Below, one piece after another: positions 1,224-10,054 of a stretch of 12,576 nucleotides of DNA. A program made the translations under genes and the position numbers. Where the stretch lies: NCBI GenBank assembly GCA_016204805.1, contig JACQKA010000004.1, positions 1 through 12,576 on the forward strand, read 5' to 3'. The first letter of the stretch is position 1. Every line of letters begins with the position of its first letter. The stretch is from Candidatus Kaiserbacteria bacterium. Its GTDB lineage: Bacteria; Patescibacteriota; Minisyncoccia; Phycocordibacterales; UBA2100. The notes under the pieces were generated by a model, which was given only the letters and a program-made list of their open reading frames with translations, had not been told where the DNA came from and searched no databases.

Positions 1224-2924
1224 TCATTCTGTTAATATCCGTGCGAGTTTCAGATCGTCGAATGAATAGACTCCCTTGAGTGCTTGGTGCACGGGGGTAA
1301 GCCGCTCGGTACCGTACCGTTTGAACGCGGCTTCGATGTGCGGAAGCGCTTTTTTGAGTGCGGGTGAAATCATGCGCGCGATCTGCTCTCGAGTGACTTC
1401 GTCTTTCATATACAGCTGTGTGATGTGATCGATAATCGTGCTCTGTTTGAGACCCCGCTCTTTCGCAATCTCTGCGATACTCTTCCCTGCCTGCGCAAGC
1501 GAAAGCGTCGATGCGTGCGAATCACCTTTTTTGGCAGTGCGTTGTGTTCTCTTTTTTGGTGCAACACCGCCCGCGATCGATCCTCCTGCAGCTTTGATGA
1601 AGCGATGGACGTGTTCAGTGTGATCGATACTATTCATCATGCCGAAATGACCGCGCGCATCGGCGGAACGGCGTTTGAATTCCATATCGTGTTCCTGCAC
1701 CTCGGGATGCGTTTCAAGCGCGCGATCGTTCCATCCGAGCACATGGAGTCCCGATAGATTGCGCACGCGCGACAGCGCCACATATCCTTGCCCGTATTCA
1801 AATGCTTCGCGCAGATCGATAACCGCCTCGTCGAGCGTCATGCCCTGCGATTTGTGCACGGTGATAGCCCACGCGAGTCGGAGCGGTAGCTGGGTAATGC
1901 GGCCCAAGATACGGCCGCTATCACCAATGACCCATTCCGCCGGCTCGACGCTGATAGTGCTTCCTCGCAAGGTGCGCACGGTGGGCACACCATCAGCCGC
2001 AATCGCCGTGACCTCTCCTAAGGTTCCGTTTGCAAACGCGCCACCTGAAAGGTCGTTCTTGGTGAACATGACGCGGGCGCCTTGTTTGAGCGTGAGCGTC
2101 TCGGGCGAAAGGCATCCCCGTTTTAGGTTCGCGATTATGCTTTCCGGTCCGTGCGACGTCATCGTATACGCATGGGGTTTCCCCGCCATCGACTGGAGAC
2201 GTTTCGTATTCAAATGGTCGACATCTTTGTTGTGCGAGAACAGCCGCGGCGCATCCGCGGGCGCATCGCCTTCGCGTACCGAACGGGATTTGAGCGTCTG
2301 TTTCGCTTTTTCTACGTCGCCCCCACGGCGGATAGCACTCAATAGATGCACGAATGCCGCGTCCGATTGCCGATGCTGTTCGGAAAGATAACAGACGATC
2401 GGGTTGAGCTTGGCCCATGCGCGCGAGCGGAATGCGAACGGTGACTCGCTTTCATCGTAATCAATGGTGGGCTCGGCGTTCCTCCGTACGATGGGAGGCA
2501 ATTGAAAGAAATCCCCCACGACGACGACCTGCATACCCCCGAACGGCTCGGTGCGTTCGCGCGCGGCGCGCAATACCATGTCCACCATCTCGAGCACATT
2601 GCCCGAGAGCATCGACACCTCGTCGATTATCAAAACTTCCGTGCCGCGTGCGCGGCGCTTCACGTTGCTTTTGTCGGCGATCTCCGCAACGTCCCATTCG
2701 GTCAGGTGATCGCGTATGCCGATGCCGCTCCATGAATGGATGGTCATGCCGCCTATGTGCGTCGCCGCAATGCCCGTCGATGCGGTTATCGCCGGTTCGA
2801 TACCGTGTTCGCGTAGCCATCGCACATAGCTATTGATGGTGTATGTCTTGCCGCTTCCTGGCTCGCCCGTGAGGAAAACATTCGCACCTGTTTTCAGAAC
2901 TTTGAGCGCTTCGTCCTGTGTCAT
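1224..2924 (-). CDS. PIF1/RecD-like superfamily 1 DNA helicase with a C-terminal helix-turn-helix domain
   Basis: The 566-aa ORF carries Walker A GEPGSGKT, motif II LIIDEVSM, the PIF1/RecD-type motif VVVGDFFQLPPI and the late motif ITVHKSQG. A C-terminal HTH-like segment reads LSLAQAGKSIAEIAKERGLKQSTIIDHI. Confidence 0.9.
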   Translation of the reverse strand: MTQDEALKVLKTGANVFLTGEPGSGKTYTINSYVRWLREHGIEPAITASTGIAATHIGGMTIHSWSGIGIRDHLTEWDVAEIADKSNVKRRARGTEVLIIDEVSMLSGNVLEMVDMVLRAARERTEPFGGMQVVVVGDFFQLPPIVRRNAEPTIDYDESESPFAFRSRAWAKLNPIVCYLSEQHRQSDAAFVHLLSAIRRGGDVEKAKQTLKSRSVREGDAPADAPRLFSHNKDVDHLNTKRLQSMAGKPHAYTMTSHGPESIIANLKRGCLSPETLTLKQGARVMFTKNDLSGGAFANGTLGEVTAIAADGVPTVRTLRGSTISVEPAEWVIGDSGRILGRITQLPLRLAWAITVHKSQGMTLDEAVIDLREAFEYGQGYVALSRVRNLSGLHVLGWNDRALETHPEVQEHDMEFKRRSADARGHFGMMNSIDHTEHVHRFIKAAGGSIAGGVAPKKRTQRTAKKGDSHASTLSLAQAGKSIAEIAKERGLKQSTIIDHITQLYMKDEVTREQIARMISPALKKALPHIEAAFKRYGTERLTPVHQALKGVYSFDDLKLARILTE

Positions 2925-3065
2925 ACCCGCACACCCATTCGCACCTTGCGGCTTCGCCGCGGCGCGCTATGAATAAAGCAACGTTTTGCAAAAAAAGCAC
3001 TCGCGAAACCACTGCCAAGAGGTTGTTTGGAAATATGCCTAGGTGCGAATGGGTGTGCGGGCATG
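2922..3065. repeat. 144-bp unit made of 24-bp inverted repeats (23/24 match, inner 20 perfect) flanking a 96-bp spacer and overlapping the helicase start codon
   Basis: Positions 2922-2945 read CATACCCGCACACCCATTCGCACC. Positions 3042-3065 read GGTGCGAATGGGTGTGCGGGCATG, whose reverse complement differs only at position 4 (A vs G). The CAT at 2922-2924 is the helicase ATG. Confidence 0.8.
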
Positions 3066-3096
3066 GACGGATTGTACACTACTGTCGTCCCTAACC

Positions 3097-3130
3097 AAAA
3101 ACCGCGCACGTTTGAGCGTGCGCGGTTTTT
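3097..3130 (-). terminator. Rho-independent, symmetric (bidirectional-type) terminator after the SIMPL gene
   Basis: AAAAA-CCGCGCACG-tttgag-CGTGCGCGG-TTTTT forms a 9-bp GC-rich stem with a 6-nt loop and has A/T runs on both sides. It starts 10 nt beyond the stop at 3140. Confidence 0.7.
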
Positions 3131-3139
3131 GCAGCCACT

Positions 3140-3952
3140 CTATCGAATCTCGTACGTAATGGTCACGTTTGAGGTAATCTTGTTCTCCCCGGTGGGCACA
3201 CTCGGTGCCATCGCGGGGACTGCACTGCCGTAACCAGAATCCGCGCTCATGAGCGCTTCGCGTTTCATATAGATCGGGTACCCGCCACTGTTTTCGTTGA
3301 AGCCGACAATGCGCACGAGCGATACGCCAAGCTGGTTCGCGAGTTCTTTCGCTTTGCCTTCTGCATCGGCGATTGCCTTTGCACGGGCATCAGCATTGAG
3401 TTTGTCTTCCTGATCAATGGTGAACGAAAGTCCGCTTACGCTGTTCACGCCGAGTTTGCCGACGCCCGAAAGCAGGTCGCCTGCCTGTGCCGTGTCGCGC
3501 ACTTTGACTTCAACCGTTTGCGATACTTCGAATCCATCCATCACCTGTTTTCCTGGAGGGCAGCGATTCGCAGTACAGGTTTCCTGTATCCATTCGTATT
3601 TCGGGTTCACGTTGTAGGAGGTCGTCTTGATGTCTTTCTCCTCTATGCCTTGCGCCTTGAGGTAATCGACGATGGCATTGCTCTTCTTGGTCGCTACCGT
3701 CTGCGCATCTTTCACTTCTTTTGCCTCTTCCAAAACAGTGACACTGAATGTCGCAAGGTCCGGCACAGCAAAGATTTCACCCTCGCCGGAAACGGTGATG
3801 GTGTTTGTCGCCGTGGTGCCCGAACCCACGAACCTGAATTCTTTGAACGTCTTGATGGCGCTGGCCGCTCCCCATAGAGCGAACGTGACGAGCGCTATGG
3901 TCGCCGCCTTCATAACCATCTCCGGCGGCACGATGTGTACTTCCTGTGGCAT
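3140..3952 (-). CDS. SIMPL/DUF541-family secreted or membrane-anchored protein
   Basis: The 270-aa ORF has an N-terminal TM/signal segment (KAATIALVTFALWGAASA). The pattern VSGEGEIFAVPDLATFSVTV, followed by alternating beta/alpha segments, is typical of SIMPL-type periplasmic proteins. The start could instead be the internal Met at 3919. Confidence 0.7.
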   Translation of the reverse strand: MPQEVHIVPPEMVMKAATIALVTFALWGAASAIKTFKEFRFVGSGTTATNTITVSGEGEIFAVPDLATFSVTVLEEAKEVKDAQTVATKKSNAIVDYLKAQGIEEKDIKTTSYNVNPKYEWIQETCTANRCPPGKQVMDGFEVSQTVEVKVRDTAQAGDLLSGVGKLGVNSVSGLSFTIDQEDKLNADARAKAIADAEGKAKELANQLGVSLVRIVGFNENSGGYPIYMKREALMSADSGYGSAVPAMAPSVPTGENKITSNVTITYEIR

Positions 3953-4038
3953 ATCAAATATGAAAAATGCTAATAACTAATACTCTTATAATACTACGAC
4001 GGTGCAGTAGCGCTGTTTCTTACCAACAGCAGTGCTTT

Positions 4039-4115
4039 TGGGGTGGCTGATGGGGCTCGAACCCACGACCGCCTGGACCACAACCAGGAGCTCTACCAGC
4101 TGAGCTACAGCCACC
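4039..4115 (-). tRNA. tRNA-His (anticodon GTG) with encoded G-1 and CCA
   Basis: Hand fold: G(-1) GTGGCTG TA GCTC AGCTGGTA GAGC T CCTGG TTGTGGT CCAGG CGGTC GTGGG TTCGAGC CCCAT CAGCCAC C CCA. The G-1:C73 pair is the bacterial tRNA-His hallmark. Confidence 0.9.
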
Positions 4116-4200
4116 ATACTACTTATGAGATTTCGGCTTAAGCAAGTCCTTCTCTCGTCCTATATCATAATGATGAACTAGAAAATGGCAATTGTGTAGG

Positions 4201-4755
4201 CTATTTATACTCCGGCGGGGTTTCGGTGATGTCGACGCGGGCGTTTGCCAAACGCGCGAGGGCGTACAGAAGCGACGAAAGCCGATTCAGATACGCACGG
4301 GTGTGATCGGCAATGGGACGCTGTCCTTCGTCGTGCACAGCGACCACTCGCCGCTCTGCACGCCGCGCAAGCGTGCGCGCAACGTCAAACCAAGCCGAAA
4401 GCTCCGTCGCGCCAGAAATGAGGAAACTTCTGATGGGCGGCAATTCCTTTTCGATCGCGTTTATGAGCGCTTCCATACTCTTCACACTGGCCTCCGGCAC
4501 GCGCTTCTCTGCCCCAGCCATTTCTGCCTGCACCGTGAACAGATGATCCTGCACATCGTGTATCAAATCCGCGACAGAACGCCCTTCTGCGGAAAAAGAA
4601 TCGCGGCGTGCAAACATTTTGCACAACCCGAGGAAAGAATTGCATTCATCGAGTGAACCCAACGCCTCGGCTATGCTCGAGCTCTTGGACATCTTTTGAT
4701 TGCAGCCGAATAGCCCCGTTTTCCCGCCATCGCCTTTCCCAGTGAAGAGAGCCAT
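4201..4755 (-). CDS. PduO-type ATP:cob(I)alamin adenosyltransferase
   Basis: The N-terminal motif FTGKGDGGKTGL matches the T.xGDxGxT signature, and the rest is a ~180-aa helical-bundle-length protein. The track starts at GTG (4761), but the ATG at 4755 is more likely. Confidence 0.8.
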   Translation of the reverse strand: MALFTGKGDGGKTGLFGCNQKMSKSSSIAEALGSLDECNSFLGLCKMFARRDSFSAEGRSVADLIHDVQDHLFTVQAEMAGAEKRVPEASVKSMEALINAIEKELPPIRSFLISGATELSAWFDVARTLARRAERRVVAVHDEGQRPIADHTRAYLNRLSSLLYALARLANARVDITETPPEYK

Positions 4756-4761
4756 ATGCAC

Positions 4762-4767
4762 AGTATA
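4762..4767 (-). promoter_or_regulatory. -10-like TATACT, 6 nt upstream of the adenosyltransferase ATG
   Basis: The minus strand reads gcaTATACT-gtgcat-ATGGCT. There is no GGAGG-type SD. Confidence 0.35.
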
Positions 4768-4777
4768 TGCCAGAAGA

Positions 4778-6156
4778 CTATGTATTTAATTTCTTTTCCC
4801 ACCTGTCTGCGATTGCTTTCGCTTTCTTGGCGGCAATACCCGTATACAGTTCAGACGAACCGAGCGCAGCACGCTGTGTCCGCGTCATTTTTTTAAGATA
4901 GTTTTTCATATCCGGATCATTCTTAATGACCTCTTCGAGAGCTTGCTGTCTCCGTTCCGCCTCAAGCGTAAGCAATCGTACTTTTTCATGTGCGTCAGGA
5001 TGTCCGAGAGAAGCGAGAATGATGTAGAGCGGCTCGGCAATGATCATTCCTTTTTGCAGTGCGAAATTCCGCCTTAGGTTACTTCGATCAACACTCAGTT
5101 TCCTCATCGCGCCTTCGAGTCGTTTTATCGTGACCACTGTATACCCGATCATTTCGCCATATGTTCGCGCGGAGGCGGAATTAGTCAGATCACGCTGGTG
5201 TTCGCTTATCTGATCCATGAACACAGTGATGAGGCGAGGCATGACGACTTTCCACATACTTTTCACATTCTCGAAATTGATAGGGTTACGCTTGTGCGGC
5301 ATGGTTGATGATCCAACCTGATTTGACGCAAACATCTCCCCCACTTCTCCTATTTCTGTCCGTTGGAGGTGTCGCATGTCATCGGCAAGATTTGCAAGGA
5401 TGCCCATCACTATCGTTACTTCGCACAACAGTCGCGCAAGCGGCTCTGGCGGCGCTATCTGAGTCGAGTGTTCAGCCGGAGTCAGCCCGAGTTCGACAAG
5501 CACCTCTGCTTCAAAGGATTCAGGATTCTTGAAAAACAGTGTCGATGCGTTATACGCACCAACGGCTCCAGAAAATTTCCCCGTCATAGTAATCGCGCGC
5601 GCTTCCAGCTCCTCAATGGATGTACCTAAACGGCTCACATAACCCGCAAGCGCAAAGCCGAATGTAATGGGCACCGCATGCTGACCATGTGTCCTGCCGA
5701 CTTGTACGGTCTCTGCTTCTCTGCGAACGATCCTAATGAGCATTTTTCTAATTTAGTAAGTGCTAGGGTGAGGACATGTTGAACCACTTCCTTAAAACGT
5801 AGCGCATTGGCCGAGTCGATGATGTCATAAGAGGTAGCCGTCATATGCACATACGGCTTTGCCGCATCGCTCACTTTGGACCGGATAACATTCACGAGCG
5901 CACGGATGTCGTGCCGGATCCGCTCTTCTTCTTTATATACTTCTTCAGGGGTCACTATCCTGCATGCGTGTTCGATTTCTCGAGCAATGCTTTTCGAACA
6001 GAGCCCCCGCCGATGCAAAACTTTGACGAGTGTTTTTTCGACAAGAAGTTTGTAGCGCAAAAATCCTTCTTCAGAAAGGTATTCCGCAACTTCTTTGTCC
6101 CAGTACCGATAGTCGATCGGTGAAATGCTCTCGAATTGGTTTCGTTTTTTCTTCAA
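4778..6156 (-). pseudogene. purB: Adenylosuccinate lyase interrupted by a 1-nt frameshift at an A5 run
   Basis: The N-terminal part (frame of ORF 5635-6336) reads ISPIDYRYWDKEVAEYLSEEGFLRYKL...HMTATSYDIIDSANALRF...LTKLEK. The C-terminal part (ORF 4778-5743) reads MLIRIVRREAETVQVGRTHGQHAVPITFG...SSTMPHKRNPINFEN, which carries the fumarate-lyase signature. The two parts abut at minus-strand GAAAAATG (plus T5, 5743-5747), and one extra A would fuse them. The only in-frame start after the tRNA is TTG at 6156. Confidence 0.8.
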
Positions 6157-6157
6157 G

Positions 6158-6241
6158 TGCGCAGGAGAGGACTTGAACCTCCACGCCCTTACGGGCACAG
6201 CCACCTCAAGGCTGCGCGGATACCAATTTCGCCACCTGCGC
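6158..6241 (-). tRNA. tRNA-Leu (anticodon GAG), long variable arm, no encoded CCA
   Basis: Hand fold: GCGCAGG TG GCGAAATTGGTATCCGC G CAGCC TTGAGGT GGCTG TGCCCGTAAGGGCGT GGAGG TTCAAGT CCTCT CCTGCGC A (84 nt). Confidence 0.9.
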
Positions 6242-6272
6242 AGGTGTTTGTCAAGAGCCGCATCCGATTCAG

Positions 6273-6935
6273 CTAAAGACGTTCCCCTACTATACCCAAG
6301 AATTTCTCTACTTTCAACCGCTTCCGCGAAAGACATACAACTTTCCGTGAATAATACATCTTGCGTAAAATTTTGAGGGAATCTGCCTTGGCATATTTCA
6401 GTTGTTCGGTTATCCCTCTTCCGTCCCGTGTAACGTGCCCCAAAATGTTAAGCCGCTTGAAAATTTCACTTTGCAACCATTTGATGTGTACGTGGCTTGC
6501 CGAAACGAAGGTCGTGTAAAACATGAAGCTAGATCTCCATCGAGGATCCCAATATGCATACGAGCAGCCATCTCCATCGTAAGAGCCCCTCAAAAAATCC
6601 CAAAACAGTCTCTTTGGGATCTTGAGTGAGCCTATTGTTTTTGATTTTGCCGGTGTCAAACCAATCGAGAAAAGAAACTCATAAAAAAGTGCGTTTTTGA
6701 ACTGCACGCGATAGGCTGTCTTTCCATCGCCGTTCGACTTCACTCCGATTTTTAAGGGGACGCCGAGACACTTCGAAAAATTTCTGAGCTGCTCCTGGTC
6801 TTTAGACGTAAGATCAATCAGATGAAAATATGGCGTCATGCACCCATCAGAAGCAAGCAAGCCGATGGCATACGCGAGCTCAGGCGTCCACTCCGTTGAA
6901 AAAATCTTCTTTGGCTTTGGACCTCTCTTCCCCAT
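6273..6935 (-). CDS. Free-standing double-motif LAGLIDADG homing endonuclease-like protein
   Basis: The 220-aa ORF has two LAGLIDADG-type motifs, LAYAIGLLASDGC and FLRGSYDGDGC, about 100 aa apart. GC content is visibly lower than in the flanking genes. Confidence 0.85.
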   Translation of the reverse strand: MGKRGPKPKKIFSTEWTPELAYAIGLLASDGCMTPYFHLIDLTSKDQEQLRNFSKCLGVPLKIGVKSNGDGKTAYRVQFKNALFYEFLFSIGLTPAKSKTIGSLKIPKRLFWDFLRGSYDGDGCSYAYWDPRWRSSFMFYTTFVSASHVHIKWLQSEIFKRLNILGHVTRDGRGITEQLKYAKADSLKILRKMYYSRKVVCLSRKRLKVEKFLGIVGERL

Positions 6936-7015
6936 TTCTTAACGATAACATATCCTCAAGGTAATAGCGTCTACCAATTGTGGATAAATAGAAAATCACA
7001 CCTATGTGACGTGTG

Positions 7016-7456
7016 TTACTCCTTTTTGTCTTCTGCTCCAACAGCGACTTCTTCTGCCGAGGCTTCAGCGGAAACTTCTGCAGTATCTGCAGTGGATACG
7101 CCCATCTCAGACATGCGGCGGAGGGCGCGCTTTGCTTCGCGAGCGACTTTTTCACGTACGTAGTAGAGCTTGGCGCGACGGACTTTCGAGCGGCGCACGA
7201 TCTCGAGACTGTCGATCATCGGCGAGTACAGCGGGAATGTGCGTTCCACGCCGACACCGCTTGCGACTTTGCGTACGGTACATGTAGCCCCCGCTTCGCG
7301 CCCGTGCTTTACCGAAAGCACGAGGCCTTCAAATAACTGCAGGCGGGTCTTGCCTTTTTCCTGAATCTTTTGCGAGACACGCACAATGTCACCCGCGCGG
7401 ATACCGAGTTCCGCTCGTGTTTTCATGTTGACCGGTGAAATCACAACCCCTTTCAT
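7016..7456 (-). CDS. rplS: 50S ribosomal protein L19 (bL19) with an acidic/Ala-rich C-terminal tail
   Basis: The 146-aa ORF reads GDIVRVSQKIQEKGKTRLQLFEGLVLSVKHGREAGATCTVRKVASGVGVERTFPLYSPMIDSLEIV, typical of bL19. The tail reads MSEMGVSTADTAEVSAEASAEEVAVGAEDKKE. Confidence 0.9.
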   Translation of the reverse strand: MKGVVISPVNMKTRAELGIRAGDIVRVSQKIQEKGKTRLQLFEGLVLSVKHGREAGATCTVRKVASGVGVERTFPLYSPMIDSLEIVRRSKVRRAKLYYVREKVAREAKRALRRMSEMGVSTADTAEVSAEASAEEVAVGAEDKKE

Positions 7457-7464
7457 AGGTGCGC

Positions 7465-7493
7465 ACTGTAACAGACGAAATCCGATTCTGCAA
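7465..7493 (-). promoter_or_regulatory. Sigma-70-like promoter whose -10 lies 8 nt upstream of the rplS ATG
   Basis: On the minus strand, TTGCAG (7488-7493) is followed by a 17-nt spacer, TACAGT (7465-7470), gcgcacct and then the ATG. Confidence 0.45.
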
Positions 7494-7526
7494 CTCGAGT
7501 TGACCTCGTTTGCGTTACTGAAAGTA

Positions 7527-7545
7527 GCCGCGTTTACGACGCGGC
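7527..7545. terminator. GC hairpin overlapping the pseudouridine synthase stop codon
   Basis: GCCGCG-tttacga-CGCGGC, with the stop codon in the loop. On the plus strand it is followed by GTTTTGTTG. On the minus strand it is followed by CUACUUUCAG, a weaker U tract. It sits between the rluA-family gene and the rplS promoter. Confidence 0.35.
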
Positions 7546-8298
7546 GTTTTGTTGTAACTTTGAAAACTCCGGGGGAGTTGGCGCGGTGAATGTTTTTTTC
7601 TCACCGGACGGCAGTGTGAGCGTGAGCGAACGCGCGTGAAGCGCCGGCCGCGTAAATCCTAAGAAGCACACTCTTCCTTCTGCATACAGATGATCACACA
7701 CTATGGGATGATGAATCGCTTTTAAGTGCACACGGATCTGGTGGGTGCGTCCCGTTTTCGGACGTACTTCTATGTGCGTAATTTTTTCTCCCGTTTCCGG
7801 ATCGACACCACGCGCGAGCACGTTCCACTCGGTGATGGCCACGCGCAATTTCCCTTTCTTCCCGTATTGCGCAGACCATCTGCGCGGATCGGTTTTCGTT
7901 CTCCCTATTTCCATTTCGATGACGCCACTGTCTTCTTTCGGATGCCCGTATACGATCGCATCGTATACTTTTTCTATCGTTCTCCCTTGGAACTGTTGTT
8001 TTAAGAATTCATGCGCTTCCGGCGTCTTCGCGACGATCATCACGCCTGATGTCGTGCGATCCAAACGGTGTACGATCCCGGGGCGCGGAACGACTTCGCC
8101 TTGCGGCGACGTCCACGGTTCACCGACATCTTTGAGTGCCGGATATTTCTCCAGAATCCATTCGACAACGGATGGCTCTTTCGTACGCCCGTCGGAATGT
8201 ACGATGAGTCCGGCAGGTTTATTGACCACGAGCACGCCGCTGTCTTCGTACAACACTACAGGCTCGTTAGGCTCCCATTCTGCGCTCGCGTTGTTCAT
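7534..8298 (-). CDS. RluA-family pseudouridine synthase (catalytic domain only, no S4 domain)
   Basis: The motifs are VVNKPAGLIVH, HRLDRTTSGVMIVAK (catalytic Asp) and PKTGRTHQIRVHL. The track ORF extends to 8763, but that part lies in an alternative frame inside uppS. The first plausible start is the ATG at 8298 (MNNASAEWEPNEPVVLYED), which overlaps the uppS 3' end by 32 nt. Confidence 0.85.
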   Translation of the reverse strand: MNNASAEWEPNEPVVLYEDSGVLVVNKPAGLIVHSDGRTKEPSVVEWILEKYPALKDVGEPWTSPQGEVVPRPGIVHRLDRTTSGVMIVAKTPEAHEFLKQQFQGRTIEKVYDAIVYGHPKEDSGVIEMEIGRTKTDPRRWSAQYGKKGKLRVAITEWNVLARGVDPETGEKITHIEVRPKTGRTHQIRVHLKAIHHPIVCDHLYAEGRVCFLGFTRPALHARSLTLTLPSGEKKTFTAPTPPEFSKLQQNAAS

Positions 8299-9013
8299 AT
8301 TCGGTAAGTATAGAGTCGAGTATCGATTCGCTGAAATCCGGCCAATACTGGTCGATGAAGAACAGTTCGGAATAGATGGATTGCCACGTGAGAAATCCTG
8401 AAAGACGTTTCTCGCCGCCGGTACGGATGATGATGTCGGGGTCCGACATGCCCCCACACCAATCACATAAAGTTCTGTTTCGCTCGTCAGCCTTTCTTCC
8501 ACACTTCGGACATGCCGATTGGTGTGGGGGCATGCCCGCGGTCCACAGTTGCGCACCGATACTTTCTTCGGTGATATTCCCCGCCGCACGTGCCGCAGCG
8601 GCGATCTCGGTGCGACCGCCGTATGACAGGCACACCCACAGCGTGAGCGCAGTATTCTTTTCGCTTTCCTTTTCGATGCGTTCCATTGACGCTCGCATAT
8701 CGGCATCGAAACGTTTACGCTCCCCCACGAATCGTATCCGTATATTCTCTTTTGCGAGCTCAATAAAATGAGTTTCTACGATGTCACGAAAAAGCTTCAT
8801 CAGGTACGAAACTTCTTCCGCCGCGCGATTCCAATTTTCAGTTGAGAAAGCGTACACTGCGAGGTGCTTCACGCCGCGGTCGCGCACCCATCGCACAGTG
8901 TCGCGTAGTCGTTCGGCACCCTGCCGATGCCCTTCTAGAGTCGGCAATCCGTGCTCTTTCGCCCACCGGCGATTACCGTCGAGAATGATGCCGATACATG
9001 CAGGAGTTTTCAT
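8267..9013 (-). CDS. uppS: Undecaprenyl (isoprenyl) diphosphate synthase carrying a 28-aa in-frame insertion
   Basis: The cis-prenyltransferase motifs are GIILDGNRRWA, FSTENWNR and IIRTGGEKRLSGFLTWQSIYSELFF..WPDF. The insertion PPHQSACPKCGRKADERNRTLCDWCGGM interrupts LWTAGM|SDPDIIIRTGGE. Confidence 0.9.
   Translation of the reverse strand: MKTPACIGIILDGNRRWAKEHGLPTLEGHRQGAERLRDTVRWVRDRGVKHLAVYAFSTENWNRAAEEVSYLMKLFRDIVETHFIELAKENIRIRFVGERKRFDADMRASMERIEKESEKNTALTLWVCLSYGGRTEIAAAARAAGNITEESIGAQLWTAGMPPHQSACPKCGRKADERNRTLCDWCGGMSDPDIIIRTGGEKRLSGFLTWQSIYSELFFIDQYWPDFSESILDSILTEYEQRERRMGA
8447..8534. repeat. Perfect 18-bp inverted repeats flanking 52 bp, forming an 84-bp in-frame insertion in uppS
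   Basis: CATGCCCCCACACCAATC (8447-8464) and GATTGGTGTGGGGGCATG (8517-8534) are exact reverse complements. CATGCCC occurs as a direct repeat at 8447-8453 and 8531-8537. Deleting 8451-8534 (84 nt) restores the canonical UppS sequence. Confidence 0.8.
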
Positions 9014-9312: not shown

Positions 9313-9388
9313 GGGCGGTTAGCTCAGCTGGTAGAGCAATTCGTTTACACCGAAAAGGTCGCGGGTTCGAGTCCTGCACCGCCCACCA
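9313..9388 (+). tRNA. tRNA-Val (anticodon TAC) with encoded CCA
   Basis: Hand fold: GGGCGGT TA GCTC AGCTGGTA GAGC A ATTCG TTTACAC CGAAA AGGTC GCGGG TTCGAGT CCTGC ACCGCCC A CCA. It is the only plus-strand gene in the window. Confidence 0.9.
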
Positions 9389-10018: not shown

Positions 10019-10025
10019 GGGACGC

Positions 10026-10054
10026 AGTATAAAACACCCTTATAAATAAGGCAA
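10026..10054 (-). promoter_or_regulatory. Sigma-70-like promoter whose -10 lies 7 nt upstream of the C39-like peptidase ATG
   Basis: On the minus strand, TTGCCT (10049-10054) is followed by a 17-nt spacer, TATACT (10026-10031), gcgtccc and then the ATG. Confidence 0.45.

Follow-up and report, generated by a model that had tools for sequence, protein, structure and literature searches.

The closest known analogue of the repeats examined here is the Ssn system, in which ~94-residue single-domain GIY-YIG nucleases of single-stranded DNA (ssDNA; clade cd10448) are encoded by genes flanked by dispersed hairpin repeats (NTS/SRM) (Chenal et al. 2025, PMC11893778). Its authors note the insertion sequence-like repeat-gene-repeat architecture, and mobility of the repeat-bracketed gene is only a hypothesis for that system (PMC11893778). 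In bacteria of the Candidate Phyla Radiation (CPR), GIY-YIG open reading frames (ORFs) have been described in non-intron inserts of rRNA genes at scattered, poorly conserved sites (Tsurumaki et al. 2024, PMC11270868). We analyzed a 12,576-nt stretch, positions 1-12,576 of contig JACQKA010000004.1 (the window, from which alone the source genome is known here), that contains two foldback elements, termed A and B, at the start of a helicase gene and within uppS. By comparison with relatives, both elements are insertions. They share their termini and probably belong, as members lacking the nuclease, to a family of minute foldback insertion elements that spans the CPR and is associated with a mini GIY-YIG nuclease. 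The two elements, their arms, and their host genes are placed as follows:

1224..2924, minus strand: PIF1-like helicase with a C-terminal HTH_40 domain, 566 aa (PF05970, 1e-33; PF14493, 1.2e-18), the host of element A.
2922..3065, minus strand: element A, a 144-nt foldback of the G-variant (CCCGCACACC), without a nuclease ORF.
3041..3065, minus strand: left arm of element A, CATGCCCGCACACCCATTCGCACCT, with an ATG at 3062-3064 that lies 6 nt past a -10-like hexamer.
2922..2946, minus strand: right arm of element A, AGGTGCGAATGGGTGTGCGGGTATG, whose terminal ATG (2922-2924) is the helicase start codon.
8267..9013, minus strand: uppS, undecaprenyl-diphosphate synthase (PF01255, 2.6e-73), the host of element B.
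8447..8534, minus strand: element B, an 88-nt foldback of the C-variant (CCCCCACACC), within uppS.
8517..8534, minus strand: left arm of element B, CATGCCCCCACACCAATC, coding for M161-PPHQS.
8447..8464, minus strand: right arm of element B, GATTGGTGTGGGGGCATG, coding for DWCGGM.
8447..8530, minus strand: the 84 inserted nt, UppS residues 162-189, PPHQSACPKCGRKADERNRTLCDWCGGM, zinc-ribbon-like (CPxCG-x11-CxWCG).

Searching the window with CATGCCCSCACACC at two or fewer mismatches returned 4 matches, at 2922+, 3052-, 8447+, and 8521-, which pair as two inverted repeats, I1 (element A) and I5 (element B). The first-pass annotation had proposed exactly this, four arms of one motif arranged as two units. 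Shuffled windows were expected to hold 0.14 matches and 0 of 200 shuffles gave 4, which excludes coincidence within the window. On reading the sequence, the agreement claimed earlier between the uppS and helicase arms was right in both figures (15 of 18 positions, 13 of the first 14), and so was the claim that the terminal ATGs are read as in-frame methionine codons, one being the start of the 566-aa helicase ORF and the other Met189 of UppS (...CDWCGGM-SDPD). The arms of element A (2922-2946 and 3041-3065) are 25 nt long and 96% complementary with 94 nt in between, and those of element B (8447-8464 and 8517-8534) are 18 nt long and 100% complementary with 52 nt in between. Both elements fold much more stably than shuffles do, element A at -42.5 kcal/mol as ssDNA (z -6.5) and -76.5 kcal/mol as RNA (z -7.8), with corresponding z of -7.2 and -6.7 for element B. 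Beyond the termini, the two interiors have nothing in common. Element A, which has CATG at its left border and TATG at its right, lies between the putative helicase promoter and the helicase coding sequence. Element B is made up of an 80-nt core with CATG on each side, which gives a net gain of 84 nt (28 codons). The terminus could be refined to CCCSCACACC(A/C/T)A, with the outer CATG acting as a 4-nt flanking repeat outside the inverted repeat proper.

Among Rfam covariance models applied to the window, four tRNAs alone reached the gathering score, with no group I/II intron or other match. A perfect 18-nt inverted repeat (I4, 4090-4107 and 9320-9337) is the D-arm region common to tRNA-His (minus strand) and tRNA-Val (plus strand), and it was ruled out as a family member on that basis.

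Empty sites in relatives identify both window copies as insertions. The 28 residues of the UppS insert are missing in 13 of 13 aligned homologues from other genomes, and these relatives are 220-227 aa long. Where the window protein reads ...LWTAGM-PPHQSACPKCGRKADERNRTLCDWCGGM-SDPDIIIRTGGE, the best-scoring homologues (78-68% identity, 220-225 aa) read ...LWTAGMPDPDIIIRTGGE. In DNA, the relative with 78% identity has the empty site TGGACCGCAGGCATGCCCGATCCGGAC and the window has the filled site GCGGGCATG[CCCCCACACC...GGTGTGGGGGCATG]TCGGAC; the nearest relatives (L118-L120) carry GGCATGCCCGAT in place of GGCATG[80 nt + CATG]. Helicase homologues are from Patescibacteria at 92-52% identity. Element A is kept at the same place in the relative with 92% identity (L162-L167) and is missing from L168 (83%) and L169 (74%), where the element-free genes start with TATACT-CTCCCA-ATGACC and TAGAAT-GCGCCT-ATGACA, respectively. 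The corresponding order in the window is TGTACAAT-CCGTCC-ATG[CCCGCACACC...GCGGGT]ATG-ACACAGGAC. Presence/absence polymorphism, for which the first-pass annotation had suggested looking, was thus seen for both window copies.

The family extends far beyond the window. A genome collection with a single entry per species yielded at least 117 loci when scanned with CATGCCCSCACACCMAT. Most of the matches listed were single matches as chance would give, and among those listed, 11 of the 12 CPR loci had an inverted partner arm, compared with 0 of the 105 others having a convincing pair. These CPR matches belonged to Saccharibacteria, Paceibacterota, Nomurabacteria, Moraniibacteriota, and BMS3Abin15. 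Scanning metagenomes with a paired-arm pattern gave 17 loci, ~12 of them distinct and several from Hainich groundwater. The same pattern had 0 matches in viral contigs and hence there is no sign of a phage origin. A looser search of the loci turned up extra copies, three in L122 and two each in L018, L123, L129, and L133, which implies a density of up to one copy per few kilobases. Altogether ~35 further elements with termini CCC(C/G)CACACC(A/C/T)A as inverted pairs were collected. As far as seen, the family is confined to CPR bacteria, and its GC-rich terminus is kept throughout hosts of 33% to 60% GC. Short members are 36-150 nt long with unrelated filler, cargo across the family ranges from 0 to 285 nt, and the extreme is a bare perfect 36-bp palindrome with no cargo (L089). 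Two candidates were left out, one (L136, 72% GC) being an apparent chance match in a lipoprotein signal peptide and the other (L094) having no partner arm. The earlier expectation of further copies was therefore borne out by paired arms in many CPR genomes from the genome-collection and metagenome scans, and these copies together with the presence/absence polymorphism support its proposal of a small non-autonomous mobile or recombinogenic repeat family. Three features go beyond what that annotation contained, namely the association with a GIY-YIG nuclease ORF, the 4-nt direct repeats at the flanks, and the leaderless-promoter context.

The two arms of a copy change together. Position 4 of the terminus (C or G) is always matched in the partner arm, and past ~14-16 nt each copy has an arm sequence of its own, also where copies share a contig, yet the two arms of a copy still pair. 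When 33 arm pairs were aligned, pairing was seen in 90% of cells, and both sides have changed in 13 of 20 pairs; the covariation score across the 33 elements was 0.439, against 0.12 when shuffled (0 of 500) and ≤ 0.11 with the partner slid. Exactly two compensated arm pairs (C:G to T:A and A:T to G:C) distinguish element A from its orthologous copy in L162A, with interiors identical at 75 of 94 positions. Few G.U pairs occur among the 660 cells of the 33-element alignment and, consequently, the pairing looks Watson-Crick, as in DNA. An RNA-only structure for the arms was set aside given the rarity of G.U and the presence of copies in DNA contexts with flanking direct repeats.

That orthologous copies stay paired via compensated changes would also be expected if the palindromes were conserved hairpins of their CPR hosts, regulatory or structural (stems in 5' untranslated regions gating translation, mRNA-stabilizing stems, or RNase III sites) and not mobile, with the GIY-YIG genes being separate selfish genes that home into the palindrome center. 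The very stable RNA folds, the right arms overlapping start codons at many genes, the L089 palindrome as a potential 'empty' site, and the single-locus nuclease genes all accord with this alternative. We nevertheless consider it unlikely, because a shared regulatory role is implausible for arms within coding sequence, 16S rRNA, and a tRNA 3' end, and because the units are precisely missing in close relatives. It also sits poorly with the many copies having non-palindromic 4-nt direct repeats, with DNA-like pairing in the arms, and with a nuclease stop codon that is built into the inner arm, suggesting one co-evolved unit.

Flanking sequences provided a further signature of insertion. We found 4-nt direct repeats around 13 of 34 elements, seven being CATG/CATG and six non-palindromic (TTTG, CTTG, CCTG, TTGA, CCAA, and TTAT; P = 4e-9 for these six alone), although the scans demanded CATG on one arm and this biases the flank statistics. 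CCTA flanks the L170 element.

Together with terminal inverted repeats and presence/absence polymorphism, such direct repeats are the classic signature of miniature inverted-repeat transposable elements (MITEs). With MITEs such as the Correia elements of Neisseria, the CPR family also shares small size, gene-adjacent insertion, and transcript effects, and its 18-25 nt arms and 4-nt direct repeats are as expected of a MITE, with the CATG/TATG borders of the G-variant as an exception. However, that the elements are ordinary MITEs, i.e., deletion derivatives of a DDE insertion sequence with a 4-bp target duplication and GIY-YIG as a passenger, strikes us as improbable. The sole ORF between the termini, at six independent loci, is an 84-97-aa GIY-YIG gene. 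No transposase was seen in any fetched locus, and these loci contained no DDE parent, for which no genome-wide search was made. Inner arms are copy-specific, differing between copies of one contig while still pairing, which is unexpected for a conserved transposase-binding sequence, and the interiors are unrelated.

The association with a nuclease is apparent at a Saccharibacteria locus (L112), whose arms enclose 285 nt coding for an 86-residue protein with PF01541 (GIY-YIG) as its sole domain match. This protein has 270 homologues of 84-97 aa, mostly from Patescibacteria, and among solved structures the UPF0213 proteins 1zg2 and 1ywl come nearest to it. We examined L112 along with the DNA surrounding six further homologues. 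Arms were present at 7 of 7 distinct loci, flanking the gene at six and standing beside it at one. The six further loci are:

L159/L160 (protein P0124): gene between the arms.
L161 (P0131): gene between the arms; the unit is placed within the 3' end of an mscS-type gene.
L139 (P0140): arrangement as in L161.
L170 (P0164): gene between the arms; the final 7 nt of tRNA-Gly(GCC) overlap with the left arm.
L174-L176 (P0230): gene between the arms; located within a 16S rRNA gene.
L149 (P0188): a 146-nt nuclease-less element comes directly after the gene.

Units of full length measure ~306-318 nt and hold, between their arms, one 84-97-residue single-domain GIY-YIG ORF whose stop codon lies in the inner right arm. 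L159/L160 derive from the same samples as L163/L167, a close relative of the window organism. The nuclease-bearing copies occupy unrelated sites, namely two start codons, the 3' ends of mscS and tRNA-Gly, and 16S rRNA, and the only recurrent site in the family is uppS, occupied in two lineages. A site-specific homing endonuclease gene was rejected, as the GIY-YIG copies are not at one conserved target site.

Two of these loci deserve separate description. In L170 (1410-1800), the right arm is followed by CCTA, after which the left-arm region occurs once more, on its own; this may reflect regeneration of the tRNA 3' end, as with integrative elements, or a tandem arrangement of elements. In L174 (843-2645), a ~1.8 kb 16S rRNA gene carries a ~318-nt arm-flanked GIY-YIG element between the regions of the 341 and 515 primer sites, and its arm helix would be a natural RNase III substrate.

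These loci, and not the window itself, show the likeness to Ssn, with a ~90-residue single-domain GIY-YIG gene bracketed by a hairpin-forming repeat that is also dispersed through the genome. In contrast to the compact ~28-nt Ssn hairpin, the CPR repeat is a split foldback with 0-285 nt of cargo. The SRM pattern HGTCWYN(0-2)YYVSBRHN(0-5)WNVSBRGN(0-2)RNCYNB had 0 matches in the window and 0 in the seven GIY-YIG loci (0.16 on average in shuffles of the window). CPR copies also differ from Ssn repeats in having 4-nt flanking direct repeats and presence/absence polymorphism and in lying inside genes, a tRNA end, and rRNA. Mobility is thereby better documented for the CPR family than for Ssn, and its hosts, CPR bacteria, are unmentioned in PMC11893778. 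The ORF inside the 16S rRNA gene of L174-L176 matches the non-intron inserts surveyed previously, in that it is a GIY-YIG ORF in an rRNA gene and not an intron. The main text of that survey (PMC11270868) makes no mention of 'inverted repeat', 'palindrom', or 'hairpin', a check of the text that did not extend to short nuclease-less or non-rRNA copies.

A looser parallel is provided by repetitive extragenic palindromes and their RAYT enzymes (REP/REPIN-RAYT), where short dispersed palindromes form long hairpins as doublets and a single-copy enzyme gene stands between inverted copies. The flanked enzyme there is an IS200-like Y1 transposase, whereas here it is a GIY-YIG nuclease. REPs are known as extragenic repeats, whereas CPR elements enter coding sequence and rRNA.

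How element A can sit on the start of the helicase gene is best seen from two further features:

3071..3078, minus strand: TGTACAAT, an extended -10-like box of the putative host helicase promoter, separated from the left-arm ATG by CCGTCC.
2921..3064, minus strand: a 47-codon open frame, proposed as a coupling upstream ORF, running from the left-arm ATG through all of element A.

Operon-first genes in the window are without a Shine-Dalgarno sequence and carry, 6-8 nt ahead of the ATG, a -10-like TAnnnT box, as at the C39 peptidase gene (TATACT-GCGTCCC-ATG, 10019-10035), the PduO-type ATR gene (TATACT-GTGCAT-ATG, 4756-4770), and rplS (TACAGT-GCGCACCT-ATG, 7457-7475). A -10 box this close to the ATG without a Shine-Dalgarno sequence suggests that leaderless mRNAs are widespread in the window organism. 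In relatives, helicase genes free of the element have this arrangement too. The helicase gene of the window likewise looks leaderless, its box spacing being the presumed signature of such an mRNA, and the assignment of its promoter draws on the extended -10 box and comparison with relatives. The 47-codon frame ends in a TGA that overlaps the helicase ATG (GTATGA). Since a host box precedes the left ATG and the open frame ends at the helicase ATG, we propose promoter capture followed by termination-reinitiation. An ATGA overlap like that of the window helicase was also found at map in L060. In L162A and at ftsZ (L018-2), the frames have 42 codons and stop 11-14 nt before the ATG, and in L159 the left ATG is the start of the nuclease ORF itself. 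Verified genes that begin at the terminal ATG are ftsZ, map, gpmI, dus, one for an ABC ATPase, and one for an LTD-domain protein. The idea that CATG-bounded ends supply start codons accordingly holds beyond the helicase, with the terminal ATG being the downstream start codon at ≥ 7 independent sites.

In some C-variant copies (L126, two in L129, and L004), TTGACA, TTGCAT, or TTGCTT comes straight after the G-run of one arm. A -10-like box lies ~17 nt beyond the hexamer in these copies, such that the element adjoins or helps form a promoter.

Element B is read through rather than started from. An insert homologous to that of the window, with G-variant arms (PAHQSECPKCGRKANNYTRQACAWCAGM), occupies this site in a second UppS (L134/L137). 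In CPKCGRKA, the two inserts show 5 synonymous and 0 non-synonymous differences, the sequence between the cysteine pairs is free to vary, and the C-to-G arm change is compensated on both sides in L134 (PPH to PAH and CGG to CAG). The host proteins are only ~65% identical and each has closer relatives without the insert. Synonymous-only changes alongside insert-free closer relatives suggest translation of the insert and constraint on it as a four-cysteine knuckle. Purifying selection appears to act on the insert, which would presumably bind zinc and either moved between uppS alleles or was repeatedly lost. AlphaFold modeled the UppS core confidently and gave the insert a predicted local distance difference test score (pLDDT) of ~48. 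No other family member examined encodes a four-cysteine loop, and a 33-residue insert peptide searched against 1.84 billion representatives had 8 weak, generic multi-zinc-ribbon matches, with no donor family.

Conservation at the protein level between two distant UppS and four cysteines encoded by no other member would fit a lineage-specific zinc-ribbon loop whose likeness to the helicase-leader repeat is coincidental. We give this explanation very little credence. The 18-nt arms of element B match the family core and recur without any difference in an intergenic element of Nomurabacteria (L042), the arm variant in L134 is compensated in both arms, the insert is missing in the nearest relatives of both host proteins, and chance is excluded within the window. 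As a stand-alone account it is largely refuted; it survives as an element copy that was later kept as a protein loop.

Reading through an element is not limited to UppS. A class I aldolase has ~26 extra residues relative to solved aldolases, and Dus has extra residues at its element. In-frame peptide segments, the other outcome that the first-pass annotation had envisaged for the ends of the element, were thus observed for UppS (two lineages), class I aldolase, and Dus. The Rickettsia palindromic elements (RPEs) of Ogata et al. 2000 are reportedly small palindromic elements that lie in frame in conserved protein genes and are translated as extra peptide segments. The in-frame palindromic insertions of UppS, aldolase, and Dus resemble RPEs as so described. 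The CPR family differs in host phylum, in occurring also on start codons, and in having a candidate enzyme partner. One tRNA-dihydrouridine synthase gene, in L133, holds two elements (450-555 and 1259-1328), the first-mentioned outcome and the second being combined there, as one element lies on the start codon and the other in frame in the C-terminal third.

Our preferred interpretation, a family of foldback insertion elements tied to a mini GIY-YIG nuclease, would work as follows. The nuclease would recognize the arm hairpin in ssDNA, as Ssn nucleases do with their repeats, and would move or maintain the elements, whose copies would persist in gene-dense genomes only where the host gene keeps working. 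Element A would have landed on the CATG of a leaderless helicase start codon. Transcripts from the host promoter would now start at the left ATG, and the 47-codon frame would be read through the hairpin to the TGA overlapping the regenerated helicase ATG. In uppS, the 84-nt insert would be read through in frame and kept as a small four-cysteine loop.

Several observations weigh against this interpretation. There is no GIY-YIG gene within the window, and neither the window nor the small elements gave a significant tblastn match to the GIY-YIG proteins or any remnant of the ORF. The small elements are without a recognizable common interior and look unrelated by eye. With neither nuclease remnant nor common interior, it is only the termini that connect them to a nuclease-bearing parent. 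Each nuclease gene that was checked occurs at one locus in its genome. At five different sites, G-variant copies invariably have CATG on their left and TATG on their right, and about a dozen C-variant copies have unrelated left and right tetramers; a simple 4-bp target duplication explains neither. A hairpin selected by the host, as RNA or as DNA, would also account for the compensated changes between orthologous copies. At element A, a two-hexamer scan of the surroundings yielded no full sigma-70 site, and the promoter, leaderless start, and translational coupling are all predictions from sequence and from comparison with relatives.

A bolder version seems to us possible but rather doubtful. 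It holds that the full-length unit is a self-contained ~310 bp transposon consisting of only a GIY-YIG single-strand nuclease gene and the hairpin it recognizes, that moves within and between CPR genomes and leaves 4-nt duplications. It would survive preferentially on the CATG of leaderless start codons, capture the host promoter for its own ORF, and return the ribosome via an overlapping stop-start, while its short derivatives would seed protein segments (e.g., the UppS zinc ribbon) and rRNA intervening sequences. To our knowledge, ~310 bp is below the size of any known insertion sequence.

CPR genomes are tiny and gene-dense. A literature search for repeat or mobile elements in CPR bacteria found none, and the present family would represent a documented mobile repeat family that crosses CPR classes. 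From the empty and filled sites and the flanking repeats, a mini GIY-YIG gene bracketed by repeats would seem to behave as mobile DNA. The family offers a possible explanation for the non-intron GIY-YIG inserts of CPR rRNA genes, one of which (L174-L176) carries the arms. It also supplies examples of how insertions may survive in essential genes, through start-codon regeneration, in-frame read-through, and retention of a zinc-ribbon-like loop. The nucleases and their defined hairpin target could serve as sequence-specific ssDNA cutters.

In gene content (PilM, C39 peptidase, L19, UppS, SIMPL protein, and PIF1-HTH helicase), the window looks like part of a CPR genome of the Parcubacteria/Paceibacteria type, and homologues of its proteins are named Parcubacteria, Kaiserbacteria, Zambryskibacteria, and Paceibacterota. 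Three other differences from the close relative L118 were observed. A LAGLIDADG-like ORF (6273-6935; PF14528, 23.1 bits) lies in a low-GC stretch (6273-6954, 0.44-0.47) that is missing in L118, where rplS almost adjoins the tRNA-Leu region; its appearance is that of a free-standing insertion of the homing-endonuclease type, placed in a spacer between genes and not in rRNA. The purB gene (adenylosuccinate lyase, 4778-6336) has a frameshift near 5740, with ORFs 5635-6336 and 4778-5743 overlapping in different frames, and its orthologue in L118 is continuous, making the window copy either a pseudogene or an assembly error. Finally, the interval from uppS to rplS holds an RluA-type pseudouridine synthase gene in the window (7534-8300) and two reverse-strand genes instead in L118 (3919-5805), encoding a 223-aa protein and an AAA_28 protein. 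By this comparison, the gene content between uppS and rplS is replaced between close relatives.

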